A stretch of 64,000 bases of DNA. Source: Candidatus Nomurabacteria bacterium (lineage in GTDB: Bacteria > Patescibacteriota > Minisyncoccia > Phycocordibacterales > UBA9973). The notes under the pieces are model-generated. The model was not told the origin of the DNA and did not search any database. It was given only the letters and a program-made list of their open reading frames with translations. Of this stretch, positions 19,733-53,935 are shown piece by piece. Position 1 is the first letter of the stretch. Each line of letters begins with the position of its first letter. A program made the position numbers and the translations under genes. The stretch covers positions 321,304 to 385,303 of the forward strand of contig CP060230.1 of NCBI GenBank assembly GCA_023898605.1, in the 5' to 3' direction.

Positions 19733-19819
19733 GGAGACGTGGCTGAGTGGTCGAAAGCGCCTCACTGCTAACGAGGTGTCCCGTCAAAAGGACCGTGGGT
19801 TCGAATCCCACCGTCTCCG
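19733..19819 (+). tRNA. tRNA-Ser (anticodon GCT), long variable arm
   Basis: Acceptor GGAGACG/CGTCTCC, anticodon loop CTGCTAA, variable arm TGTCCCGTCAAAAGGACCGT, T-arm GGGTTCGAATCCC. Confidence 0.8.
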
Positions 19820-19849
19820 CAATAAATCTGACCGCACCCCGCCACAATT

Positions 19850-19948
19850 TGTCTGGGGAAAATGAGGCGGAGTGCTAATGCGGACTCGCCCGCGCAGACC
19901 CCCCAGACCCCTCCTCCGCGCGGGCTTCACTTTTTGTTTTTTGGACAC
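19850..19948. repeat. Partial copy of the 200-nt repeat family. Contains a GC-rich hairpin plus the left 31-bp inverted repeat of the SDR cassette.
   Basis: CAATTTGTCTGGGG segment; hairpin GCCCGCGC-AGACCCCCCAGACCCCTCCTCC-GCGCGGGC at 19888-19925; GCGCGGGCTTCACTTTTTGTTTTTTGGACAC is inverted at 21231-21261. Confidence 0.6.
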
Positions 19949-20000
19949 AGGCGCAAAACATGAAAAATCACTTTAAAAAATGTTAATATAAGGGCACGAT

Positions 20001-20867
20001 ATGGATTTTCCTAAACAGACAATTTTAATAACTGGCGCAACAGGGGGATTAGGAAAGGTGCTTGCAAGGGAGCTTGCTAATAAAAGCAGTACTTTAATTC
20101 TAACTGCTCGAGAAAAAGAAAAACTTGAGTCTTTAAAAAAAGAACTTGAACCTTTTTATGAAAAAATTATCATTCAGCCAGCAAACCTTTTAGAAGATGA
20201 AGACCGAAGAAAAATTGAAGAATTAGCAAAGGAAACCACTATTCTTATAAATAACGCAGCAATTTTCGGAACAGACATAAAATCAGTTGGCGAACGAGAT
20301 ATAAACGAAGAATCGAATATAAATAAACTAAATGTCCAAGTGCCGGGCCGATTATCATTTTTTGCTCTTTCTAATATGAGAGATAAAAAATACGGAAGAA
20401 TAATAAACGTTGGATCCACTTCTGGTGTATTTAAATACACTGGTAGAAGTTCATACAGCTGTTCAAAAATAGCATTGTTAAGGCAAACTGAAACTGTTAA
20501 CCAAGAAATAATTGAGAGTATTGGTGGTGATTATAAAGATAAAGAAACTGATAAGTATATTGACGTCTTTGCTTTTTATCTAGCCCCAGGTCCAATGGAA
20601 TCAAGTAAAAGCGCTGAAGAAGTAATATTAAAAAGAGCTGAAAGTTTAAACGTATCAAAAGACGAAATGGCAGAAAAATATAAAATGTATGAAAATGCTA
20701 ATACTGGTGAAAAAACAATGCTTGATTCAAAAGCAGTTGTTGAAAAAGTTATCGAAATATTAAAGCCACTAGGGCAACTTGAATATAAACAACGTAAAGA
20801 GATTAATGAGATCATTACAGATTTTCCCCCATACTCTCTTATTAAAAAGACAAAAAGTCAGAAGTAA
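20001..20867 (+). CDS. Short-chain dehydrogenase/reductase (SDR) family oxidoreductase
   Basis: N-terminal TGATGGLG Rossmann motif and a YxxxK-like catalytic region; 288 aa. Confidence 0.7.
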   Translation: MDFPKQTILITGATGGLGKVLARELANKSSTLILTAREKEKLESLKKELEPFYEKIIIQPANLLEDEDRRKIEELAKETTILINNAAIFGTDIKSVGERDINEESNINKLNVQVPGRLSFFALSNMRDKKYGRIINVGSTSGVFKYTGRSSYSCSKIALLRQTETVNQEIIESIGGDYKDKETDKYIDVFAFYLAPGPMESSKSAEEVILKRAESLNVSKDEMAEKYKMYENANTGEKTMLDSKAVVEKVIEILKPLGQLEYKQRKEINEIITDFPPYSLIKKTKSQK

Positions 20868-21230
20868 ATATTTTTTATGTTAAATTTTGAAAAAAAATAA
20901 AATTGAACAGATAAAGAGAGAAGCACAATCAAAAGATGCTCTGTTAGAAGAACTAGAAAACGTCAAATCCTAAGAGTTATTAAAAAATATACTTTTAGAG
21001 CTTATTGAGTTTAAAGAATGGAAATCAGTTATTGAAAATATAGAAAAGTTCTCAATAGATGATCAAAAAGAAGTGGCCATTAAAATAATCGAAAACGGTG
21101 GAGTGGAACATATTGAATTAAATTTGCCAGTGTTTAATTCTCAAATTCAAGGTGAAATTTAAAAAGCTGTCTTAAAAAACCTTGAATCAAAGTGCGTGCT
21201 AAACTCATTAACTTACTTTTGATTGCGTCT

Positions 21231-21415
21231 GTGCCCAAAAAACAAAAAGTGAAGCCCGCGCAGACCCCCCAGACCCCTCCTCCGCGCGGAACACAGCCGA
21301 GGTTTTGCGAATCCGTGTCCCCAGAAAATTGTTTCGCAAAACCGAGTCCATTTTATTAGTTTTAATCATTTGGATTTTGCTCGAAATAGTTTCGAACTTT
21401 GTCTAGTAAGTACCG
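21231..21415. repeat. Copy of the 200-nt repeat family, same orientation as the 52017-52219 copy, including the right 31-bp inverted repeat of the SDR cassette
   Basis: About 85% identical to 52058-52215. Compensatory changes keep both stems paired: GGTTTTGCGAA/TTCGCAAAACC versus GGCAGGGCGAA/TTCGCCCTGCC. Ends on an ACCGCA core at 21407-21411. Confidence 0.65.
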
Positions 21416-22095: not shown

Positions 22096-22458
22096 ATGGA
22101 AAACTTGACTGACACGATTAAAAAACTAGAACTATCTCTGCTAAAACCAGAAGTTCGGTCTTCAAAAGATATGTTAGACAAACTTATCGCAGATGACTTT
22201 ATTGAATTTGGAACATCGGGAAACAAATACACAAAAAAAGACATTTTGGATAGATTGCCAAATAGTCCAGAAGACGCAAGATACCAGGCAAGCGATTTTT
22301 CTATTGAGATGTCCCCAGAAAATTTTGTAGTTGTAAAATTTAAAACTAAAAAAATAATAAACAAAAAAGAAACAATCTTTTCATCCCGAGTTTCCTACTG
22401 GAGAAAAACTGATTTGGGTTGGCAAATTTTCTACCACAAATCTACTCCTATTATTTAA
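22096..22458 (+). CDS. Hypothetical protein, SnoaL/NTF2-like (DUF4440-like)
   Basis: 120 aa. Starts within a duplicated 26-nt promoter-plus-start motif (see findings). Confidence 0.45.
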   Translation: MENLTDTIKKLELSLLKPEVRSSKDMLDKLIADDFIEFGTSGNKYTKKDILDRLPNSPEDARYQASDFSIEMSPENFVVVKFKTKKIINKKETIFSSRVSYWRKTDLGWQIFYHKSTPII

Positions 22459-22481
22459 TTTGTTGATGCTATACTACCTTA

Positions 22482-23066
22482 ATGGAAAAACCAAAGGTTA
22501 GATTTATATACGCTTATCCTCTAGATGTATCTAGAAGAAACTTAGCAGAAGAAAGAGGTATAGATTATCCTTCTGTAGAAAAAATAATAGAAACAAAAGA
22601 TAACTGGGAGAGGTTATGGGAATCATTCGAAAAAGAAAATAGTGTAATCAATCTTATACAAGAAATTACAAAAAATACTCCAGACAGGAGCCTAGAGTGT
22701 TTTGTTGTAGGCGGCATGATGAGTTCGATGTCTGCCCCGTTTATCGTAACTACACTAAGAAGGGGTGCCGATCGAAGTGATGAAGACTTTATAGATACAA
22801 TGATTCACGAACTTCTTCATATATTTCTATCTAAAAAGAAAAGTTACTTTTCTTTTCTTGGAAATAAATACGAGGCAGAAACAAAACTGACACAAAACCA
22901 TATACCAATATATGCCATGCTAGAAAAAATTTATGAGGAAGTATTTAAATCTAAACCATTAGATTATTCTAGAAATGATATACCGGTTGATTACCAGAAA
23001 GCAGTAGATATAGTAAAAAAGGAGGGTTATAAAAATATATTGGAAGATTATTACCAAAATATATAA
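22482..23066 (+). CDS. Hypothetical protein with an HExxH motif
   Basis: 194 aa containing ...DTMIHELLHIF..., a possible metallopeptidase-like site. Shares the duplicated 26-nt start-region motif. Confidence 0.4.
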   Translation: MEKPKVRFIYAYPLDVSRRNLAEERGIDYPSVEKIIETKDNWERLWESFEKENSVINLIQEITKNTPDRSLECFVVGGMMSSMSAPFIVTTLRRGADRSDEDFIDTMIHELLHIFLSKKKSYFSFLGNKYEAETKLTQNHIPIYAMLEKIYEEVFKSKPLDYSRNDIPVDYQKAVDIVKKEGYKNILEDYYQNI

Positions 23067-23071
23067 TTAAA

Positions 23072-24115
23072 ATGGAAAAAGAATTTGATCAATCTAATAC
23101 AAAAACATGTCCAGCTGGATTAATTGATCTTTTTAATAAAACATATTCTGAAAGATTAGAAAATTGTATACCACTTGAAGCACATGCATCCACAAGAAGA
23201 TATTACATACTAAAATCAAAAAGTTACGAAACATTGGGTGCTACGGGCGATGACCCACAAGAAAACAAGGCCTTTGTAAAACTTGCGAAACATTTAACAA
23301 AAAATGGTGTTAACGTGCCTAGAGTTATTTCACACACCGATGATTATAAATTCTATATACAAGAACTTTGTGATCAAGTAGATTTATTTTCTCTTGTAAC
23401 AAAATATCCAGAAAAACAAATAGAACTTTTAACAAAAGCGATTGATCTTCTTGTAAATTTTCAAAAAAAAGGAACTATTGGATGGGATTATTCTGATTCT
23501 TATCCATTTAAATCTTTTGATTCAAAAGAAATAAATAATAACTTTAAAAGACTAAGTGAATATTTATTGGGAAGCATAAATATAAGTTTCAATAAAAAAA
23601 TCCTTGATGATTTTGAAAAAATCTTAATAAGAGAAATAGAGTCAATACCGAAAAATGAATATGTACTAATGCATAGGGATTTTCAATCTAGAAACATACT
23701 TATAAACAAAGAAATTTATACACTCATAGACTTTCAAGGATCAAGAAGTGGCCCAAAACATTATGATTTGGCATCTTTACTATTCCAGTCTAGAATAAAT
23801 TGGAAAAAAGAAAGTCAGGAATATCTTTTAAATTATTATTTAAATCTTAATAAAGAAATAGACGATCGAGATCTTTTTATTAAAAATTTCTACTTTTTGG
23901 GAGCTGTGAGAATAATACAAGCACTTGGATCATATGGAATAGCAATTTATTTAAACAATAAAAAATCCTTTCTAGCTAGTATAACGCCAGCCTTAAAAAA
24001 CTTAAGGGAAATTACTGAGGTTTTAAATAAAAGATACAAAATAAATACTGATAAAACAGTAGAATTAATAGACGAATTAATAATATTTTTTTCTAAAAAT
24101 GATACATCTATATAG
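23072..24115 (+). CDS. Aminoglycoside phosphotransferase (APH)/choline-kinase-like kinase; possible anomeric sugar kinase, AmgK-like
   Basis: 347 aa with an HRDFQSRNILI catalytic loop (HxDxxxxN) and a downstream IDFQGS (DFG-like) motif. Confidence 0.6.
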   Translation: MEKEFDQSNTKTCPAGLIDLFNKTYSERLENCIPLEAHASTRRYYILKSKSYETLGATGDDPQENKAFVKLAKHLTKNGVNVPRVISHTDDYKFYIQELCDQVDLFSLVTKYPEKQIELLTKAIDLLVNFQKKGTIGWDYSDSYPFKSFDSKEINNNFKRLSEYLLGSINISFNKKILDDFEKILIREIESIPKNEYVLMHRDFQSRNILINKEIYTLIDFQGSRSGPKHYDLASLLFQSRINWKKESQEYLLNYYLNLNKEIDDRDLFIKNFYFLGAVRIIQALGSYGIAIYLNNKKSFLASITPALKNLREITEVLNKRYKINTDKTVELIDELIIFFSKNDTSI

Positions 24116-24488
24116 CTTTTCTTATAAAAAGAGTGCGAGAGTAGAACATGATCCAGAATCATTGCAATATATTTTTGATTGTAGACCTATACTAAACCCA
24201 GGAAGAATACCGGATCTTTTGCCCAAAAATGGAAAAGATAAGGATGTGATAGAATATTTGGAAACAAAAACAAAAATGCCAAAATTTATTGAGTCAATAA
24301 AAGGTATAGTAGAAATAGCCGTTGAAGAATATTTAGAAAAAAAAGAAAGATACAAAGAATTACATATTTATTTTGGTTGTACGGGTGGACAGCATAGATC
24401 TGTTTACTGTGCAGAAAAAATAAAATCTTATATAGAAGAATATTTTAAATTGGAATTATTATTAACCCATAAAGAATTAAAAAGTTAA
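24099..24488 (+). CDS. RapZ/YvcJ C-terminal-domain-like protein
   Basis: 129 aa containing ...IFDCRPILNPGRIPDL... and ...YFGCTGGQHRSVYCAEKI..., resembling the conserved C-terminal region of RapZ-family proteins. Confidence 0.45.
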   Translation: MIHLYSFSYKKSARVEHDPESLQYIFDCRPILNPGRIPDLLPKNGKDKDVIEYLETKTKMPKFIESIKGIVEIAVEEYLEKKERYKELHIYFGCTGGQHRSVYCAEKIKSYIEEYFKLELLLTHKELKS

Positions 24489-24493
24489 AAATT

Positions 24494-25210
24494 ATGAAAT
24501 TAGTTGTATTGGCAGCGGGAAAAGGATCAAGATTTTACCCCATAACAAAAAAAATACCGAAGGGGCTTGTCCCAATATTAGGAAGGCCGATGCTTGAGTA
24601 TGTATTGGCGCCATATATGGATCATATTTCCGAAATAATAATGGTTGTTAATAGTGACCTCGGACACCTTATAAAAAATCATTTTACAAACGAATACAAA
24701 GGAAAACCAATTACGTATATAGTACAACCAAATGAAGGTCCAAAAGGGACTTTTTCTTCTCTAAGTTTATGCAAAGATCATCTGAGTGATAATGATGTTT
24801 TTTGTGTTTCAAACTGCGATGATTTACTCGAGCCAAAACAAATGAAAGAAGCTCTGAAATCAAAAAAGATAGGCCTTGGTGTTACAAAGTCTAAAATGCC
24901 TTGGTACTATCTTGGTATAAAAACTGACAACGGAATAGTAAAAGGTTTTGAAAGATACTCCAAAGAAAATGGTGAATTTATAACAAACGACTTTGCAAAT
25001 GGATTTTATATTTTATCCAAAGGTGTACTTGATTTTAAACCAGTAGAAACAAGAGATGGTGAACATGGTTTGCCGCAAACAATTTTTGAAAATATTAATT
25101 CTTATGAAATGGAAACCCACCAAGTTGATGAGTGGCAGGCAGTAAACGGACCAGATGACCTAGAAAATGCAGAGTTATTTGTGAAAAAACACTTCAGTGG
25201 ATTAAATTAA
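24494..25210 (+). CDS. Sugar-phosphate nucleotidyltransferase (MurU/GlmU-N-like)
   Basis: N-terminal MKLVVLAAGKGSRFYPITKKIPKGLVPILGRPMLEYV, an NTP_transferase signature; 238 aa. Confidence 0.7.
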   Translation: MKLVVLAAGKGSRFYPITKKIPKGLVPILGRPMLEYVLAPYMDHISEIIMVVNSDLGHLIKNHFTNEYKGKPITYIVQPNEGPKGTFSSLSLCKDHLSDNDVFCVSNCDDLLEPKQMKEALKSKKIGLGVTKSKMPWYYLGIKTDNGIVKGFERYSKENGEFITNDFANGFYILSKGVLDFKPVETRDGEHGLPQTIFENINSYEMETHQVDEWQAVNGPDDLENAELFVKKHFSGLN

Positions 25211-34867: not shown

Positions 34868-35010
34868 TGTGCCCTCACTGCGTTATCAAGATTATTCAGT
34901 GCGTGCACTGCGAATTTTTATAAGATAAAAGTGCGTGCACTGCGAATTTTTATAAGATAAAAGTGCGTGCACTGCGAATTTTTATAAGATAAAAGTGCGT
35001 GCACTGCGAA
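34868..35010. repeat. Tandem direct repeat, 32-bp unit in about 4.5 copies, with no spacers
   Basis: The unit GTGCGTGCACTGCGAATTTTTATAAGATAAAA occupies 34899-34930, 34931-34962 and 34963-34994. A partial unit spans 34995-35010 and a degenerate copy lies at 34868-34898. Confidence 0.85.
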
Positions 35011-35025
35011 GCTTTAGCGAAGCAG

Positions 35026-35410
35026 TGGAAATGGGGGGAATCGAACCCCCGTGCAACAACTTCTCTACTATTCGTCTACATGTTTATTTCTATTTCGTAT
35101 CTCGATTACAAACTAAAAAATAGAACAAAACCGATTGTAATCTAACTCAAAATTTTTCGTGTCAGAAAGAGAGTGGCTTCCAGACCTTATCTCAGAAAGT
35201 ATTATACCCGTTATATCCACCCTGAGAAAAAGATATAGGGGCAGCTAGCGATTTATACGCGAGCGTAAGCAAAATCGTTCATACTAAAGTATGGAGATTT
35301 TACTGAAAATGCTTTTGCATTTATGTTTTGTGTCAAACTTTTACGAAAATAGGACACTTATTCGACATGCAAAATAACAAAGACGGCTATTGTCGATACC
35401 GATCATTCCC
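35026..35410 (-). ncRNA. ssrA: Candidate tmRNA (ssrA)
   Basis: The minus strand ends ...GGGGGTTCGATTCCCCC-CATTTCC-A (T-arm plus 3' acceptor strand) and begins GGGAATG-ATCGGTATCGAC, whose first 7 nt pair perfectly with CATTTCC. The gene is about 385 nt and lies immediately downstream of smpB. The tag ORF was not resolved. Confidence 0.5.
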
Positions 35411-35437
35411 CTAAATCATTTTGCTTTGCAAAATGAT

Positions 35438-35610
35438 CGGGCGAACATTTGCTTTATCAAGCAAATGTTTTAGCCATAAATCTTATATCACATTGATATA
35501 AGTCGGGCGAACATTTGCTTTATCAAGTAAATGTTTTAGCCATAAATCTTATATCACATTGATATAAGTCGGGCGAACATTTGCTTTATCAAGCAAATGT
35601 TTTAGCCATA
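35438..35610. repeat. Tandem direct repeat, 66-bp unit in about 2.6 copies, each containing two hairpins
   Basis: Units at 35438-35503 and 35504-35569, with a partial unit from 35570. Internal palindromes AACATTTGC-TTTATCAA-GCAAATGTT and ATATCA-CAT-TGATAT. Confidence 0.8.
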
Positions 35611-41555: not shown

Positions 41556-44279
41556 TTATGATTTTCTATATTTTTCCATGATTTCTTTCTCTACAATCTC
41601 TCTTTCTCTACCGTATTTCAAGCTAGAAAGCTCCTTTATTCTCTCCCCCGCCTCTCTGTCGCCGTTTGGATTATCGACAGTTCTGATAGAAAACGGTCTA
41701 TCTGTCGGTGCACCGCGAACAATCATAGACATATATGCATGCCTATTCTCAAGTTTTATAATATCGCTCGCAGAAAAAGTCGGAGCAAACTTTGGTTCTA
41801 GAAACTCTGCATCTTCTGGCGAAACTCGGAATACGGCCATAGAACCAACGTTACCAAATACAGCATTTTTTATATCATCATCCAATTGAGAAATATATTG
41901 GTGAGCAACGTTTAGAGAAAGCTTGTATTTTCTAGCTTCAGAAAGTATAGAAGAGATAGATGGTGTTGTTACGTTTTGGAATTCATCTATATATAGATAG
42001 AAGTTTGGTATATCAGAACCAACAGAATCTACTCTTGAAAGTGCTGCCATCTGGATTTTTCCTACAAGAATAAGTCCGATGAGAGAAGAGTTTATTTCTC
42101 CTAATTTTCCCTTGGAAAGATTTACTAGAAGTATTTTCTTTTCATCCATAATCTTCCTGAAATCAAAAGCCGATTTCTGTTGACCAATAACTGGTCTCAT
42201 GATGTCGTTTGATATAAGTGGATCAAACTTGCTCGAGATATAAGGCACGAAGTTTGAAAGTCCAGCCTCTCCAGTCGTCGCCTCGGCTGCTCTCCAGAAC
42301 TCTTTGATTATAGGATTTTGGCATTTGGATAGTTTGTAATCTCTGTAACTCTTGTCTTGCAAGACTCTAGTTATTTCCATGAGTGTTGAGCCACTTTCTG
42401 GGTCCTCCATAACCAAAAGTGCACTATTTCTGAAGTATTGTTCAAACTGTGGACCTCCAGCAACCTTCATATCATAAAGTTGGTTGAAGATGTTTATCAT
42501 CTCGTTTACAACAAAAGTTTTTTGTTCTGGCTTACTATAATCATACTCGAGCATGTTGAGACCCATAGGTCTAGATATATCACTAGGATCAAAGTATATG
42601 ACGTCATCATATCTTTCTGGCGGAATATAAGAAAGTATATCTAGAACATCTGATCCGTGTGGATCTATAAAGCAGCAACCTTCACCATTTTTAATATCTT
42701 GATAAACTAGATTCTTTAGAATAGAAGTCTTACCAGTACCCGTCTGACCTATAACATAAAGGTGTCTCAATCTATCTTCCGACGACATAAATACAGGTTT
42801 GTTTGTACCACGATAGGTGTTTTCTCCTATCAGGACCCCTTCTTCTGGCATTCCAGTAGGAACGGGCGCTTCGCCAGACTTTGCAGTTTTTAGGTGGGGG
42901 AGCTTCTCCACTCTCTTTGGGAAGTGTATTATGCTAGATATTTCTTTTAGGTTTAGTGGGAAGGATCTATCTTCTTCGTATTCTCGATAAATAAACTTCT
43001 TGATGAAATCTTTCTCTCCCCTATCTGTTATAGAAACAGGAACGAGTCTGTTTGATCCTGCCTCTCCAAACTGATTAAATGCAGATATTATTTCTTCCAA
43101 AATCTGATTTGATCTAGATTTGCTTGAAGAAGAAGCGATTATTCTTATAGAAACACTGCAGAAACTAGATGCCATTTTTTCTATGACTCTTTCTATACCC
43201 TTTTCGTCTATCTTTTTTTCTTCATTTTCTACTTCTTTTTTGGGAGAAGAAAAAATCTTCTTTACTTCTCTTAATGTGTCTTTTGTTTCGGATCCATATT
43301 CTGGCTTTTTGCCATCTCGTAGATTGTCTAGAACTTTTGAAATCTTTTTCAAAACCTTATCCCCTTCTGGTCTTACTAGTATCTGAACTGCTGCTCCTTC
43401 ACCCTCTTTTTTTAGTTTGGAAAAAACATTCAAGATTATATTGAGTGGATCATATTCCATCTTGTCATAAGTTTTGATAGGAAAAGCAGGTATATTGTCG
43501 AGAGACAAAAACGCGGCTTTTGTCTCACCACCTTCTACAAATATATTGTAGTCATCTACCTCTTCTGTTATTTTTGCATCGGGATGTATACCGAGAACCA
43601 TTTTCTCAAGTAGATCTACTTTTTCTCCGGGAACAGCAACGTAGAAAACCACCTCTTCACCAAAAGAAGACTGTGCGATTTCCAAGCTGTAATAATCTTT
43701 GCCTCGATTACTTCTAACTTCACCCACAGAAGACATGCCAGCTAAAAACTGTTCCATCTTGGCGATAATTTCTCTGTGAGATTTTTCTTTGTCCCCATCA
43801 GAAGATGTGTCTGGAATAGTTATTTCAAAAAGTCTCATATTGAGTCTTTTATATAACTCGGCAGTATTCTTGAGTCCTGGAATTTCTTTTCCACTAACAA
43901 GATACTGGACCAAAAACCTATGAAAATCATCGTATACGTGAGGATTGTTTAGCTTCTCAGCAACTGAAATAGCGTTCTTTATACCCTTTGAAAGAAGCAC
44001 TCCTAGAAGCTCCTCCATTACATTGTCATGGGGTTCTGGAGAAAGTCTGAGCACTATCTCATCTTTACTTTTTTCAGGAATAGACATTTTTGGGTGAAGT
44101 ATGTCGCCCTCATCTACCTGTCTGTATTTTTCTACCAAGTCAGAAGCTATGTACTCTTTTTCTTTTGTGATTCCTCTTTCTCGAAGAGCTCTTTCTGCAA
44201 CCTCTATCCTTTCTCTCAAAAAAGCCAGTTCATCTTCTGGATTCTCGAAAGACTCTTTCTTTTGAAGAAATTTTTCCAT
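41556..44279 (-). CDS. Large P-loop ATPase of the HerA/FtsK/VirD4 (DUF87-type) superfamily
   Basis: 907 aa. The C-terminal half has Walker A VIGQTGTGKTS, FIDPHGSD and Walker B YLYIDEFQN. The N-terminal roughly 450 aa has no recognised motif. Confidence 0.5.
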   Translation of the reverse strand: MEKFLQKKESFENPEDELAFLRERIEVAERALRERGITKEKEYIASDLVEKYRQVDEGDILHPKMSIPEKSKDEIVLRLSPEPHDNVMEELLGVLLSKGIKNAISVAEKLNNPHVYDDFHRFLVQYLVSGKEIPGLKNTAELYKRLNMRLFEITIPDTSSDGDKEKSHREIIAKMEQFLAGMSSVGEVRSNRGKDYYSLEIAQSSFGEEVVFYVAVPGEKVDLLEKMVLGIHPDAKITEEVDDYNIFVEGGETKAAFLSLDNIPAFPIKTYDKMEYDPLNIILNVFSKLKKEGEGAAVQILVRPEGDKVLKKISKVLDNLRDGKKPEYGSETKDTLREVKKIFSSPKKEVENEEKKIDEKGIERVIEKMASSFCSVSIRIIASSSSKSRSNQILEEIISAFNQFGEAGSNRLVPVSITDRGEKDFIKKFIYREYEEDRSFPLNLKEISSIIHFPKRVEKLPHLKTAKSGEAPVPTGMPEEGVLIGENTYRGTNKPVFMSSEDRLRHLYVIGQTGTGKTSILKNLVYQDIKNGEGCCFIDPHGSDVLDILSYIPPERYDDVIYFDPSDISRPMGLNMLEYDYSKPEQKTFVVNEMINIFNQLYDMKVAGGPQFEQYFRNSALLVMEDPESGSTLMEITRVLQDKSYRDYKLSKCQNPIIKEFWRAAEATTGEAGLSNFVPYISSKFDPLISNDIMRPVIGQQKSAFDFRKIMDEKKILLVNLSKGKLGEINSSLIGLILVGKIQMAALSRVDSVGSDIPNFYLYIDEFQNVTTPSISSILSEARKYKLSLNVAHQYISQLDDDIKNAVFGNVGSMAVFRVSPEDAEFLEPKFAPTFSASDIIKLENRHAYMSMIVRGAPTDRPFSIRTVDNPNGDREAGERIKELSSLKYGREREIVEKEIMEKYRKS

Positions 44280-48845: not shown

Positions 48846-48933
48846 CCAAAATACTAGTTTGGCGAAGTGCGGAGACGGAGGGATAGTTCGACAGGCTCAC
48901 TATTAAAAAGTTCCGATCTCACACCGTCAACAA

Positions 48934-49206
48934 CTAAGTGCTTTTACTTAGTTGAATTAATAAATCTTTATTTCCATCTATCAACGCTTTCTTTTTTGCT
49001 TTTGACCACCCTTTGATTTGTTTTTCTCTTTTTTCAGCCAGATTTCTAGTGTGTAGATTTTCTGTATACACTAGCTCTACTGAGTTAAATTTACTCGTAA
49101 ATTTTGACTGCTTGTTTTTATGCTGAAAAAATCTCCGTTCAAGATTGTCTGTCATTCCTGTATAATACATTTCTTGGTTGCAAAAAAGTATATATACAAA
49201 CCACAT
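48934..49206 (-). CDS. Small GIY-YIG nuclease-domain protein (third paralog in the window)
   Basis: MWFVYILFCNQEMYYTGMTDNLERRFFQHKNK...; 90 aa. Located between junction 1 and junction 2 of the island. Confidence 0.65.
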   Translation of the reverse strand: MWFVYILFCNQEMYYTGMTDNLERRFFQHKNKQSKFTSKFNSVELVYTENLHTRNLAEKREKQIKGWSKAKKKALIDGNKDLLIQLSKST

Positions 49207-49242: not shown

Positions 49243-49445
49243 TGCGGTGTTTGTTGGACAAAGTTCGAAGCTATTTCGAGCAAAATCCAAACGATTAAAA
49301 CTAATAAAATGGACTCGGCAGGGCGAAACAATTTGTCTGGGGGAATGGATTCGCCCTGCCTCGGCTGATTTCCCGCCCGCAGGAGGGGTCTGGGGAGGAA
49401 TGCGGGCGGGTTTCGGACTGGGGTTTTTCGGAAATTCAGCGGCTA
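49243..49445 (+). repeat. 203-bp inverted-repeat arm of the island (member of the 200-nt repeat family)
   Basis: Near-identical reverse complement of 52017-52219. Begins with the TGCGG core at 49243-49247 and contains the GC-rich hairpin CCCGCCCGCA...TGCGGGCGGG. Confidence 0.85.
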
Positions 49446-50837
49446 TGATTTTGGTATTGCTGGAAAATCAACAATTTTCCCAACACTATTTTTTATAACA
49501 TCTCGGCAACTTTTTGCAAAAACTTTATTGTTTGATTCTTTTATATATTTTGCAACACGAAAAAGGTCAGTTGTTCTTACCAAAGCACAATTTGAAGATT
49601 TTGCTGTAGTTATACATTTGGTTGTAAACTGTTCTGCTCGCTCGGATGGTTTTGTGAGTCGAAAGCCATTTCCAAATAGAATACCGACCGCAGGGTTTTC
49701 CACTTCATCTCTTTGCAAGTCTTCCTGAATATTTACTGCAAGTTGTCTAAACTTATCAATATTGACTGCGGAAGTGTCTTTACCCTCTGCTTCGCCGATA
49801 AAACGATCTCCCTCTGGCGAGGTGATAACATGATCTAATTCAAGATTTCCGTCATTATAATTTTCTGCCTTATAACCTAAAATCTCTAAGGCGGTAGTGA
49901 TTGCAGTTTCAAGCACTTTTCCTTTTTCAAATAGTAAATCTCTTAACTTAATTTCTTCATCAATCTTTGTTAGTAGCTCATTCTTTTGTAAAATCAGTTT
50001 CTCAATTTCTTTTGTTTTCTTTTCAACTTCATTTTTTAAAATCTGCTCTTGTGCTAATTGGTAATCCGTTTCATTCGTCCAATCTGGTGGCGGGGTTTTA
50101 TCTCCTCCTTTACGGAGAGCTTTATCAATATCAACAAGCGCCTTAACTAAAGATTTTCCAAATTGCGTTGCTTCTTTTGTCCAATATTCTTTTTTATCCT
50201 TGCCTTTAATTTCAGTAAACTTTTTCTCATCATAATTTATGTAGGGCAAAACAATTATGTTTCCATTTTTGACTTTATAAATTGCACCTAAAATCTTTGT
50301 TTTATCCTTGCCCGTAAAAAGAACCTGTGCACCTGTTGCGTTTTCTATATAAAGCTGGTACTCCAAACTTTTCTTGAATTTTTCATTAAAATCACTAAAC
50401 ACTGTATTTCCCGAAAATTCAACATGTTTTCCAGAGGCGGAAGTTAATGAGCCAATATTGATCGGCAAAAAAGCGTAGTTGTTATACATTTCCGTATGAA
50501 AAGTATTTTGCCCCTTTCTTTCCGATGAAACGCTACTGGCAAGCTGATATTCTTCTTTATTCGTTAAAAGAATAAAAACATTTTTCCCCGCATTTAAATA
50601 ATCTTCAATCTCTTTTCTTAAACGTGATATTTTTTGTTTGTAAGCTTGCGAAGCCGAAACATTGTAGCAACCTCCATCGCTTGTAGTGAAGCTAACCCAA
50701 TCTCCTCTTGGCACTAATGAATCAGGCGAAATCAATAGAATATCAGCATCCATCAAAGACTTACCATCGTAAAAATCAACGAGATTTGTGTCGAATGTTG
50801 GTATCGTATATCCAATTGTGAATATCTGATTTTCCAT
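49443..50837 (-). CDS. Hypothetical island cargo protein: unknown N-terminal domain, coiled-coil and possible PD-(D/E)xK-like C-terminus
   Basis: Start set at MENQIFTIGY (ATG 50835-50837), two nucleotides after the EamA stop. The central region is K/E-rich and helical. The C-terminus ...ELDHVITSPEGDRFIGEAEGKD... fits a D...ExK pattern. Confidence 0.45.
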   Translation of the reverse strand: MENQIFTIGYTIPTFDTNLVDFYDGKSLMDADILLISPDSLVPRGDWVSFTTSDGGCYNVSASQAYKQKISRLRKEIEDYLNAGKNVFILLTNKEEYQLASSVSSERKGQNTFHTEMYNNYAFLPINIGSLTSASGKHVEFSGNTVFSDFNEKFKKSLEYQLYIENATGAQVLFTGKDKTKILGAIYKVKNGNIIVLPYINYDEKKFTEIKGKDKKEYWTKEATQFGKSLVKALVDIDKALRKGGDKTPPPDWTNETDYQLAQEQILKNEVEKKTKEIEKLILQKNELLTKIDEEIKLRDLLFEKGKVLETAITTALEILGYKAENYNDGNLELDHVITSPEGDRFIGEAEGKDTSAVNIDKFRQLAVNIQEDLQRDEVENPAVGILFGNGFRLTKPSERAEQFTTKCITTAKSSNCALVRTTDLFRVAKYIKESNNKVFAKSCRDVIKNSVGKIVDFPAIPKS

Positions 50838-50839
50838 AG

Positions 50840-51730
50840 CTATACCAGTAAAATATAAACACCTGCAAACATAATTACTGCCCCGATAGATTTCTTTATC
50901 AGCACAGAAGTAGAAATATCCTCTTTGATAATGTGCGGAATAAAGAGTGTTAGTAGTATGCCAATTAGTATTGCGTAAAAGGACTGAACCTGCATAACAA
51001 CAGTAACTAACCCAGCAGATGGAGCTATAGCAAGAGCTTTCTTGATACTCATTTGACCGAAAAAGTCCAAGACATTGTTCCATGAAAACCAAATGTATTT
51101 TCCTGCTCTTGCAGTTCTAATTCCTTCAATGACTTGTTTGCGTATTGACGGAATAATAAACATTGTTAGTCCTGCTAAAGCAGAACCCAAATTGTCGAGC
51201 ATAAAATAATCCCAAAATGACATTTTCGTTAGCCCGTAATCTATGAGCAAAGTCATTATTGACCACATCAAAATCGCTATCAGTATCATCCCGAAACCCT
51301 TTATGAATATGCCTTTACTTTTTTCAAACGAGACAATCGTTGCGCCAACTAGAACAATCACGAATCCCAAAAGTTCATTTGAGGATAGTGTTTGACCCAA
51401 AAAAGTAAAGGCGAGTATTACAGTAATGACAGGAATGAGTTTAAAAAGAATCACAAGGGAAGATGTATCACCTTGTTCGAGAGCTTTTCCATAGAAGCCA
51501 TAGGAATAAATAAGTATCATTCCTGTTGCGATTGATATCAAAGAAAAAATATCGAGTTCTGGTCTTCCTGCAAAAATGAATATTCCCGCAAAGAATATCC
51601 AGCTAGTTATTGTTGAAAAGAAAACGAAATCAAAAATCCCTTTTGTATATTTACCGAGAATATATTTGTCCACAAAATTAGATGAAGCCCAAAATAGTGG
51701 CGCGAGTAGTGAGAGAAAAATCCAGCTCAT
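50840..51730 (-). CDS. EamA/DMT-family transporter
   Basis: 296 aa with 10 TM helices and a duplicated EamA pattern. Confidence 0.7.
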   Translation of the reverse strand: MSWIFLSLLAPLFWASSNFVDKYILGKYTKGIFDFVFFSTITSWIFFAGIFIFAGRPELDIFSLISIATGMILIYSYGFYGKALEQGDTSSLVILFKLIPVITVILAFTFLGQTLSSNELLGFVIVLVGATIVSFEKSKGIFIKGFGMILIAILMWSIMTLLIDYGLTKMSFWDYFMLDNLGSALAGLTMFIIPSIRKQVIEGIRTARAGKYIWFSWNNVLDFFGQMSIKKALAIAPSAGLVTVVMQVQSFYAILIGILLTLFIPHIIKEDISTSVLIKKSIGAVIMFAGVYILLV

Positions 51731-51731
51731 A

Positions 51732-51935
51732 TTATTTAATTAGCTCCTCAATATCAACATTGAGAGCTTTGGCTATTTTACTCACCACAAAAACCGAAGG
51801 TTTTTTGATGACACCTGTTTCGACCTTTGTAAGCGTTGTATAGGGGACATCCGCTTTACGAGCAAAATCGTCTTGAGAAAGACCTAATTTTGTCCGTAGT
51901 TTCTTGATTTTCTGTCCTAGTTGGTTACTTTCCAT
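51732..51935 (-). CDS. XRE-family helix-turn-helix transcriptional regulator
   Basis: ...LGQKIKKLRTKLGLSQDDFARKADVPYTTLTKVETG...; 67 aa. Confidence 0.75.
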   Translation of the reverse strand: MESNQLGQKIKKLRTKLGLSQDDFARKADVPYTTLTKVETGVIKKPSVFVVSKIAKALNVDIEELIK

Positions 51936-52016
51936 ATATTGATAACATAATACTGTTGCTTGTTTTCGCTTGCAGTATTATAATAACAAATATGAGAGAT
52001 TTATTCAATAATTTTG

Positions 52017-52219
52017 TAGCCGCTGAATTTCCGAAAAACCCCAGTCCGAAACCCGCCCGCATTCCTCCCCAGACCCCTCCTGCGGGCGGGAAATCAGCCG
52101 AGGCAGGGCGAATCCATTCCCCCAGACAAATTGTTTCGCCCTGCCGAGTCCATTTTATTAGTTTTAATCGTTTGGATTTTGCTCGAAATAGCTTCGAACT
52201 TTGTCCAACAAACACCGCA
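52017..52219 (-). repeat. 203-bp inverted-repeat arm, the partner of 49243-49445
   Basis: Reverse complement of 49243-49445. Ends on an ACCGCA core at 52214-52219 that is shared with the next repeat. Confidence 0.85.
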
Positions 52220-52333
52220 TCAAATCGGAATTCAAATTTCCGCCCAAAATATGGTCGGCGCGAAGCGCCGTCTGTTCTGAATTCCCCCCAAAAAATCCTG
52301 AATCTGCAAGGATTCGCCACGCTCCGCGTGGCT
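52215..52333 (-). repeat. 120-bp inverted-repeat arm, the partner of 53734-53853
   Basis: Reverse complement of the sequence immediately left of the tRNA-Ser junction. Contains the hairpin GCCACGC-GGAG-CGTGGC. Confidence 0.85.
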
Positions 52334-52353
52334 CCTCGTTTGCCAATACAATT

Positions 52354-53916
52354 ATGAAAAATCAAACCAAAAAGTTTTTTATTTATACTCGCAAGTCTAC
52401 GGACGACAAAGACAGACAAGTTCGCAGTATTTCTGATCAGTTAGCAGAACTGAAAGATTTGGCGTTAAAAGAACAACTGGAAATTGTTGATGTCTTTGTC
52501 GAAAAACAGACCGCCAAAATACCAGGTCGCCCAGTATTTAACGAAATGTTGGAAAGAATGGAAAAAGGCGAAGCATCTGGTATTTTGGCGTGGCACCCCG
52601 ATAGACTTGCAAGAAACAGCGTTGATGGTGGAAAAATTATTTATCTTGTTGATACCGAGATTATTCAAGATTTGAAATTCTCAACTTTTTGGTTTGATCC
52701 GACACCGCAAGGAAAATTCATGCTCTCAATTGCTTTTTCGCAATCCAAGTATTATGTGGACAACTTATCCGAAAACATAAAGCGAGGTCATCGCAACAAA
52801 GTGAAAGATGGAATATGGCCTCAAATGGCTCCACTTGGATATGTAAATAAAAATAGAAAGATTGTTCCCGATGAGAATATTGCACCTTTAATCAAGAAAA
52901 CATTTGAGGCATATTCTTCTGGATCTTTCACTTTGCGACAACTTCGCGACAAATTTAATGAACTTGGATTGAAGCGAAAAAGCGGAAAGGAGCTTGCGGT
53001 GTCGAATTATCAAAAACTTTTGAAAAATCCTATATACACAGGGCTAATGCTTTACAATGGCGAAATCCACGAGGGTAAGCACGAACCGATTATTACAAAG
53101 AAACTTTTTGACTCCGTTCAGGAAGTGATGATGAGAAAATCTAAACCTCACTCGAAAGGTCTAAAACCATTTTTATATAGAGGATTTTTCCGTTGCGGAG
53201 AATGTGGCTGTTTTATCACTACCGAAACACAAAAGGGTCATAACTATTTGCGATGTACCAAACGGAAAAATCCTTGCTCGCAAAAATACACTCGTGAGGA
53301 AATCATCACTTCCGAAATTCAAAAAGAAATCAAAAAAGTTTCTTTGCCAGACAATTGGGCTAAATGGATGTTAGCTGAAAACGAAAAGGATAAATTGGTT
53401 GAAGCCCAATCGTCTACGCTTTTTGCGGATTCAACAAAAGCCGATATTTCTCTTTTGGATTCCAAGATTGAGAAGCTGATGAACGCTTACCTAGAGAACG
53501 CACTTTCACTAGACGAATATCGAGATATGAAAAACAAACTTGTGAACGAAAAACAGCTTCTCAAAGAGAAATTATCAGCTTTTGAGCAAAAAGCGAATAA
53601 TCGGTTCGAACTTACCGAAAAGTTTTTGAAATACAATATAGAATTGGCAAACGAGGGAATAAATGAAGAGAAACTTCATTTATTCAAAAAAGTCGGTTCG
53701 AACTTTATTATTGAAGCTCGAACCGTACTTTTTGAGCCACGCGGAGCGTGGCGAATCCTTGCAGATTCAGGATTTTTTGGGGGGAATTCAGAACAGACGG
53801 CGCTTCGCGCCGACCATATTTTGGGCGGAAATTTGAATTCCGATTTGATGCGGAGACGGAGGGATTCGAACCCTCGAAGGCTTTCACCTTGCCACCTTTC
53901 CAAGATGGTGCACTAG
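52354..53916 (+). CDS. Large serine recombinase (resolvase/invertase N-terminal domain, recombinase domain, zinc ribbon and coiled-coil)
   Basis: Start set at MKNQTKKFFIYTRKSTDDKDRQ... (ATG 52354). ...ILAWHPDRLARN... is the resolvase catalytic domain; CGECGCF...C is the zinc ribbon. The last roughly 60 codons run through the right 120-bp repeat and into the tRNA, so the true C-terminus is uncertain. Confidence 0.75.
   Translation: MKNQTKKFFIYTRKSTDDKDRQVRSISDQLAELKDLALKEQLEIVDVFVEKQTAKIPGRPVFNEMLERMEKGEASGILAWHPDRLARNSVDGGKIIYLVDTEIIQDLKFSTFWFDPTPQGKFMLSIAFSQSKYYVDNLSENIKRGHRNKVKDGIWPQMAPLGYVNKNRKIVPDENIAPLIKKTFEAYSSGSFTLRQLRDKFNELGLKRKSGKELAVSNYQKLLKNPIYTGLMLYNGEIHEGKHEPIITKKLFDSVQEVMMRKSKPHSKGLKPFLYRGFFRCGECGCFITTETQKGHNYLRCTKRKNPCSQKYTREEIITSEIQKEIKKVSLPDNWAKWMLAENEKDKLVEAQSSTLFADSTKADISLLDSKIEKLMNAYLENALSLDEYRDMKNKLVNEKQLLKEKLSAFEQKANNRFELTEKFLKYNIELANEGINEEKLHLFKKVGSNFIIEARTVLFEPRGAWRILADSGFFGGNSEQTALRADHILGGNLNSDLMRRRRDSNPRRLSPCHLSKMVH
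53734..53853 (+). repeat. 120-bp inverted-repeat arm abutting tRNA-Ser(GGA)
   Basis: See 52215-52333. Confidence 0.85.
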
Positions 53917-53935
53917 ACCGCTATGCGACGTCTCC
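53851..53935 (-). tRNA. tRNA-Ser (anticodon GGA), long variable arm
   Basis: Minus strand: acceptor GGAGACG/CGTCTCC, D-arm GCATAGCGGTCTAGTGC, anticodon stem-loop CCATC-TTGGAAA-GGTGG, variable arm, T-arm GAGGGTTCGAATCCCTC. Confidence 0.8.

Follow-up and report, generated by a model that had tools for sequence, protein, structure and literature searches.

A predicted FokI-like PD-(D/E)xK nuclease of a widespread unnamed protein family is cargo of a mobile tRNA-Ser island in Candidatus Nomurabacteria and plausibly serves in defense

The window analyzed here is a stretch of 64,000 nucleotides from a 619-kb contig (CP060230.1) of a Candidatus Nomurabacteria metagenome-assembled genome, and it contains, at 49243-53853, a 4611-bp genomic island inserted at the 3' end of a tRNA-Ser(GGA) gene. 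The subject of this report is the last gene of the XRE-EamA-X cassette of that island (locus H6791_02140), which encodes a 464-residue protein, called X throughout, whose C-terminal domain is predicted to be a FokI-like PD-(D/E)xK nuclease (Table 1). A preliminary description of this DNA placed the ATG of X (50837-50835) 2 nt after the stop codon of an EamA transporter gene (TAG at 50842-50840), with an XRE regulator gene upstream, and the sequence reads exactly so. The XRE and EamA genes are separated by a single nucleotide, a promoter scan finds a promoter-like TTGAAT-17-TATTAT (52008-51980; a consensus match only) before XRE, and the ATG of X has no clear Shine-Dalgarno sequence ahead of it. 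From the close spacing we infer that translation of X may be coupled to that of EamA. In a mechanical list of open reading frames (ORFs) the frame of X stays open upstream to a TTG at 51092, but all homologues start at MEKQIFTIGY and the ATG is therefore the true start. The TAG stop codon of X (49445-49443) lies inside the outer repeat arm at the left end of the island.

X is a real gene and not a chance ORF. It has more than 565 close homologues, a profile search gathers, at E<=1e-3, 1986 clusters (50% identity) and, at E<=1e-30, 508 of them, with end-to-end matches over ~460 residues in nearly every case, and the ratio of nonsynonymous to synonymous substitution rates (dN/dS) of X against six relatives is 0.05-0.17, so that X is under strong purifying selection. 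The named relatives, including RefSeq proteins from cultured Flavobacterium, Chryseobacterium, Pedobacter, Winogradskyella, Pontibacter and Malaciobacter, are all 'hypothetical protein', and neither X nor four of its distant relatives match anything in Pfam, NCBIfam, PHROGs or PADLOC, in line with the earlier remark that X is unannotatable. Literature on the family could be found neither by accession nor by domain combination. Thus a family of ~2000 clusters at 50% identity, present in a dozen phyla and on clinical Enterobacter plasmids, has no name, no model in the libraries searched and no literature that we could find.

The AlphaFold2 model of X (alignment of 32 homologues; mean predicted local distance difference test, pLDDT, 85.4) consists of an alpha/beta N-domain (residues 1-245), a long helix (262-302) and a C-domain (306-464), and so reproduces the three-part layout of N-terminal domain, K/E-rich helix and C-terminal segment that had been proposed from the letters alone. 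The core elements of the C-domain follow one another in the order alpha-beta-beta-beta-alpha-beta, with a Glu on the first helix, an Asp at the start of the second strand and an ExK on the third strand, that is, with the core fold and the conserved E, D and (D/E)xK of the PD-(D/E)xK superfamily. The segment 'LDHVI...GEAEGK', whose spacing had been taken for a PD-(D/E)xK core, corresponds to D335 and E349-A-E351-G-K353 (49833-49835 and 49779-49793), and both the predicted fold and the positions of these residues in the model bear that reading out. In a family alignment of 29 sequences at 32-61% identity, E310, D335, E349, E351, G352, K362 and Q365 are invariant, and in 32 closer sequences the same residues and K353 are all invariant. 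The predicted fold together with the conservation of the motif thus suggests that the C-domain is a FokI-like PD-(D/E)xK nuclease.

Table 1. Gene X, its predicted domains and key residues, and the parts of the island, in window coordinates.
Feature	Coordinates	Strand	Remarks
Outer arm A, left end of island	49243-49445		203 nt, perfect inverted copy of 52017-52219
Gene X	49443-50837	-	464 codons plus TAG stop; homologues
X, predicted FokI-like PD-(D/E)xK nuclease domain, residues 303-464	49446-49931	-	Predicted fold and key residues
X, key residue K353	49779-49781	-	
X, key residue E351	49785-49787	-	
X, key residue E349	49791-49793	-	
X, key residue D335	49833-49835	-	
X, key residue E310	49908-49910	-	
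X, linker and helix, residues 246-302	49932-50102	-	DSSP of model; alignments
X, N-domain, residues 1-245	50103-50837	-	Predicted class-I glutamine-amidotransferase (GATase1)-like (ThuA/STM3548/GIFT-like) fold, alpha/beta
EamA/DMT-family membrane transporter, co-cargo	50840-51730	-	Pfam EamA, E=4.6e-15
XRE/HTH_3 regulator, first gene of the cassette	51732-51935	-	Pfam, E=1e-16
Internal segment S	52017-52334		318 nt; A' 52017-52219 and B 52215-52334
Core CCGCA (tgcgg at the outer arms)	49243-49247, 52215-52219, 53849-53853		
Large serine recombinase	52351-53916	+	Pfam Resolvase, Recombinase, Zn_ribbon_recom; orthologues L099-L108 at 81-96% protein identity
Outer arm B', right end of island	53734-53853		120 nt, perfect inverted copy of 52215-52334
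tRNA-Ser(GGA), integration target	53850-53935	-	3' end ...CCGTCTCCGC

The N-domain is predicted to adopt a GATase1-like fold, and only L28, D32, G136 and P198 are invariant in it across the family, C57 being kept only in the close subfamily. No Cys-His-Glu triad is present in the alignment of 29 sequences and the role of an active amidotransferase is therefore ruled out for this domain. It is followed by a linker with a conserved TPxPxW motif, of which P251 and W253 are invariant across the family, and by the K/E-rich helix of 41 residues, whose hydrophobic residues recur at a spacing of 3-4 and which we regard as a putative dimerizing coiled coil. In the fold search the N-domain resembles the GIFT, ThuA and GH42 domains found in carbohydrate-handling proteins. 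This resemblance, and the solitary state of X as a nuclease without a methyltransferase of its own, would suit a special case of defense in which X belongs to the Type IV (modification-dependent) restriction enzymes and uses its N-domain to recognize modified DNA, for instance a sugar-modified base; but X contains no known modification-reading domain (SRA, PUA, winged helix or YTH) and the link to sugars is mere fold resemblance, and we judge this explanation to be quite improbable.

We hypothesize that each monomer of X would carry one FokI-like active site (E310, D335, E349/E351 and K353), that the conserved helix would pair two monomers, and that the non-catalytic GATase1/GIFT-like N-domain would either recognize a trigger, such as a phage protein or some property of foreign DNA, or restrain the nuclease until such a trigger appears. 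The two catalytic domains would then meet in the manner of FokI and cut double-stranded DNA. Nuclease activity, dimerization, the sensor role of the N-domain and a defense phenotype are what we infer for X from its predicted folds, its conserved residues and its genomic company.

The genomic company of the family was examined in 78 loci. All-against-all clustering of the neighbors within 7 kb gives no conserved partner, the best neighbor cluster being present in 5 of the 78, and a conserved adjacent small partner gene of the kind that marks type II toxin-antitoxin (TA) systems is likewise absent from these loci. On the other hand, X abuts or sits inside restriction-modification (RM) or abortive infection (Abi) loci in at least 12 distinct contexts, often as the last gene of the string. 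For example, X stands after a type III res-like helicase (L021), after an N6-methyltransferase (L022), after an AbiEii gene (L001) and after an HsdS gene that follows an MmeI-like type IIG enzyme at some remove (L128), with HipA, HIRAN, methyltransferase and HerA genes nearby in L007. It also follows an M.EcoRI-like gene and a GmrSD_N/HNH restriction endonuclease gene (L023 and L026, the latter with an OLD-like ATPase as well), the same pair together with AbiEii (L123-125), and a string of XRE, M.EcoRI-like gene, 181-residue protein and GmrSD_N protein (L126).

Such placement bears on a rival explanation in which X is tied to RM systems, either as a guard or back-up effector comparable to PrrC, silenced by or monitoring the RM complex and firing when a phage disables restriction, or as an additional nuclease subunit docking onto RM proteins. 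X lies within the string hsdM-RhuM-X-hsdS in L035 and ends the string hsdR-hsdMS-AAA_15 ATPase-X in Malaciobacter (L090); it comes directly after pairs of M.EcoRI-like and GmrSD-HNH genes in four contexts, and in P0219 it is fused in-frame with an HsdS domain. But most X loci, that of the window included, have no RM genes nearby, the partners vary in type (I, II, IIG and III), contrary to what one specific physical partner would lead us to expect, and the P0219 fusion could be an artefact of gene calling. We therefore consider a dedicated RM guard or subunit unlikely.

In our assessment the chances are about even that X acts alone as a catalytically competent DNA endonuclease of the PD-(D/E)xK superfamily, carried as cargo and most likely directed against phages or other invading DNA; defense is the best-supported reading of its role, plausible but argued from guilt by association. 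Several observations weigh against it. The conservation of the D, E and K residues in homologues, on which the preliminary description let its nuclease assignment depend, holds for the acidic residues, all invariant in both alignments, and the nuclease reading passes this check, but K353 is Lys in 25 and Arg in 4 of the 29 distant sequences. The inter-domain geometry of the model is uncertain (predicted template modeling score, pTM, 0.53), and X has no recognizable DNA-binding domain. No match was found in Pfam at E<=1, FokI catalytic-domain families included, and none of the families of PADLOC-DB 2.0.0, a defense library of 2023, matches X at E<=10. PDB profile searches with full-length X and with the C-domain give only chance matches such as Spindly and ribosomal protein uL1, and an hhalign comparison of the C-domain profile with a FokI sequence gives a probability of 0.2% and no signal; since these searches tie X neither to FokI nor to any solved nuclease at the level of sequence, the nuclease assignment rests on fold and motifs. 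A structure search of BFVD with X gives domain-level matches only. Many X loci have only housekeeping neighbors, and the comparison of defense models near to and far from X is semi-quantitative only, as the 417 PADLOC models matched by a sample of 148 genes at most two positions from X, against 107 by a sample of 148 genes more than 6.5 kb away, tally redundant models and not proteins. Other cargo of the same element family is not defense-like and the co-cargo in the window is a transporter.

The structural matches of X in the fold search include NucS/EndoMS and other repair nucleases, and X could accordingly be imagined as a nuclease of DNA repair or recombination, or of the life cycle of the element itself, with no part in immunity. 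We hold this to be improbable, as the distribution of the family is patchy, X is not associated with replication or repair genes, and the element family has other members that are mobile but lack X. A pattern search over one genome per species (185,579 species) finds at least 129 stretches that encode a relative of X, in Patescibacteria, Bacteroidota, Alpha-, Gamma- and Epsilonproteobacteria, Planctomycetota, Cyanobacteria, Nitrospira, Acidobacteriota and one Methanophagaceae archaeon, a patchy distribution that is consistent with horizontal transfer. Relatives of X are also carried by 13 IMG/VR contigs and, alone between insertion sequence (IS) elements, by seven Enterobacter IncF plasmids, while GenBank phages give no match and E. 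coli complete genomes none at the DNA level. The IncF plasmids come from clinical isolates and six of the seven are typed as conjugative. One of them, the Enterobacter hormaechei plasmid NZ_CP031569.1 (L122; 101225-102565), encodes a full-length homologue with 36% identity (WP_049126869, 'hypothetical protein'), which stands by itself, bordered by IS3/IS21 elements and a GNAT/DUF1778 TA pair.

That X is cargo of a recombinase island, as had been suggested earlier, is confirmed by a bounded element at tRNA-Ser and by its mobility. The A/A' repeat pair flanks the XRE-EamA-X cassette and the B/B' pair flanks the large serine recombinase, arm B' overlapping the final 4 nt of the tRNA gene; a GIY-YIG gene (48934-49206) lies outside. 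On the minus strand the order is the tRNA ending in CCGTCT-CCGC, the right half of S, the reversed recombinase gene, a full inverted S, XRE, EamA, X, the left half of S ending in CCGCA and the chromosomal flank. The outer arms are thus the two halves of S split at the 5-nt CCGCA and therefore fit the integration of a circle via an attachment site (attP) equal to S, which excision would restore from these arms. The 3' end ...CCGTCTCCGC is common to tRNA-Ser(GGA) and to tRNA-Ser(GCT) at 19733-19820, and in contig L009, which comes from another sample and matches the window at 99.9% identity in its flanks, CCGCA links this cassette and arm to the DNA immediately after tRNA-Ser(GCT), a site that is empty in the window (19817-19830). 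This insertion at another tRNA-Ser, with the site empty in the window, is independent proof of the mobility of the island. With its recombinase domains, one core at the junctions and in attP, and an alternative site seen both filled and empty, the island is an integrative element, and tRNA-Ser genes are the targets into which its large serine recombinase inserts it, at the CCGCA of their 3' end. An origin of the inverted repeats in assembly error is rejected, as independent assemblies show the cassette between identical arms and diverged elements have these arms too, at 90-97% identity. No contig was found in which an intact S links the 3' end of X with that of the recombinase gene, the junction expected of an excised circle, the metagenome scan having been aimed at the core of S, and a look-up through the GIY-YIG protein returned no record of an empty tRNA-Ser(GGA) site.

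The recombinase ORF has no stop codon before arm B' and continues across the arm and then, in antisense, over part of the tRNA gene (53734-53916) for a total of 521 codons, whereas its conservation with orthologues stops near residue 461 (conserved to ~53733). Only 16 nt separate arm B from its ATG and its promoter must therefore lie within or beyond S. Segment S itself is GC-rich and has four hairpins, two of which, in A', show a shared loop motif CCCCAGAC (GTCTGGGG on the opposite strand), and one stem has a compensatory change (GGCGC/GCGCC versus GGCAC/GTGCC). RNA folds of S have z-scores of -4.6 and -3.0 for the two strands, and Rfam gives only chance-level matches; S could comprise accessory recombination sites, terminators or an RNA. 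The metagenome scan, made with the 24-nt core of S, yielded 10 elements that share the stretch of S and recombinase at 79-92% DNA identity (recombinase 81-96% at the protein level), with S more conserved, at 90-97%, in the alignment of L099-L106. The excised circle would hold two inverted copies of S parting a cargo segment from a recombinase segment, and among related elements the cargo segment points either way with respect to the recombinase gene, with L099 and L101/L106 flipped in comparison with the window, L102, L104 and L105. This suggests that the arms serve for flip-flop inversion and/or an exchange of cassettes.

The genes that lie between XRE and the outer arm differ among these 10 elements (membrane proteins, secreted proteins and K/E-rich proteins of no assigned type). 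As the same kind of XRE is found with other cargo, the gene belongs to the element family and XRE is no dedicated regulator of X. Close relatives of X (82-99% identity) ride on elements of this family, accompanied by either EamA (the window, L009 and L013) or an RM system (L022 and L126, where the recombinase has 60-61% identity and the hairpins of S are retained). The co-occurrence of X with the serine recombinase, which had been proposed as a check, is seen within bacteria of the candidate phyla radiation (CPR) and not in other phyla. EamA is incidental co-cargo, and a functional XRE-EamA-X unit is rejected, the grouping being confined to one element lineage. The L013 cassette, a 95%-identical relative, has an extra gene for a 367-residue protein between XRE and EamA (L013:7073-8176; no Pfam or PADLOC match) and belongs to an island of ~10 kb at tRNA-Ser(CGA) with two recombinase genes, one of them degraded, and diverged arms that are 93-96% complementary.

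The nuclease-type 'defense or addiction function' first suggested for X is thus retained in its nuclease part, with defense as plausible, and not supported in its addiction part. X could be considered an addiction toxin that stabilizes the mobile element, with XRE as antitoxin or repressor, given that a nuclease gene lies on a mobile element, in one operon with and downstream of a small HTH gene. But XRE is conserved in the element family, where it also accompanies unrelated cargo, most of the 78 X loci have no XRE neighbor, no small partner gene is conserved, and the extra L013 gene intervenes upstream of X between XRE and EamA. A TA module of X and XRE is accordingly rejected, and addiction, which we would grant only a slim chance, is the weakest of the rival explanations because no partner is conserved.

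In a sister strain with a 98.8% identical flank (L129:443-2315), homology to the window ends at 48872, and an AAA_21/AAA_15 ATPase and a RloB-domain protein stand where the window has the GIY-YIG gene and the island. The neighborhood of tRNA-Ser(GGA) is therefore a strain-variable hot spot, with a defense-type pair in the other strain.

The predicted nuclease resembles several known systems in part. Its C-domain is predicted to work like the cleavage module of FokI (also of N.BspD6I/R.BspD6I), but X shares no detectable sequence similarity with FokI and has neither a FokI-type recognition domain nor a cognate methyltransferase, the place of the former being taken by the GATase1-like domain and the long helix. 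The design of a sensor domain followed by a PD-(D/E)xK domain recalls Shedu (SduA) and Can2; however, X matches neither DUF4263 nor the PADLOC SduA model, and the N-domain of Shedu is hypervariable where that of X is conserved across the family. Card1 and Can2, CARF-nuclease ancillary effectors of CRISPR systems, have a CARF domain in place of the GATase1-like domain, and X has no link to CRISPR or a cyclase. Like X in L035 and L090, PrrC and RloC are single effector genes inside hsd operons, but X has a DNA-nuclease fold and is mostly without RM genes, whereas PrrC and RloC are ATPase-anticodon nucleases that cut tRNA. The domain combination of X is not described in the defense library used (PADLOC-DB 2.0.0). 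The island is comparable to tycheposons (Hackl et al., bioRxiv 10.1101/2020.12.28.424599), which are likewise small, integrate next to tRNA genes, carry interchangeable cargo and occupy strain-variable hot spots. However, of the 501 tycheposons in that paper 474 have a tyrosine recombinase, whereas the island has a large serine recombinase, no replication module, an internal inverted 318-nt attP copy and a cargo segment seen in both orientations.

More tentatively, and as a possibility that we rate as somewhat doubtful, X may found an unrecognized and widespread class of single-gene immune nucleases, in which the GATase1/GIFT-like domain would sense infection, possibly as the loss of restriction, and license coiled-coil pairing of the FokI-like domains, and which in CPR bacteria would be spread by a minimal element whose inverted attP duplicate allows flip-flop inversion and swapping of cargo cassettes. 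If X is a defense nuclease, it would represent a new sensor-effector design that combines a GATase1-like fold with a FokI-type cleavage module, and a portable nuclease domain that depends on dimerization may be of use in engineering. Among near-identical strains, the 4.6-kb element that carries X has moved from one tRNA-Ser gene to another, and a role of X in defense, if true, would help explain how CPR bacteria with their tiny genomes gain and exchange immunity.

Other features of the window were noted. Downstream of tRNA-Ser(GCT), hairpins related to those of arm A (19821-19923) and an A-like copy with 86% identity (21267-21403) are probably the scar of an element inserted earlier. Compared with L009, the window contains two additional segments in this region, one with an SDR-like gene and flanking 36-nt direct repeats (19924-21253) and one with kinase-like and nucleotidyltransferase-like genes (22104-25210). 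The transfer-messenger RNA (tmRNA) gene at 35023-35410 is flanked by near-perfect tandem direct repeats at 34898-35010 (81 and 49 nt) and 35437-35610 (108 and 42 nt). A 907-residue protein with a P-loop (41556-44279, minus strand), annotated in a sister contig with DUF8128 and a faint TraG-D_C match, could represent a coupling-protein-like ATPase of a CPR bacterium.
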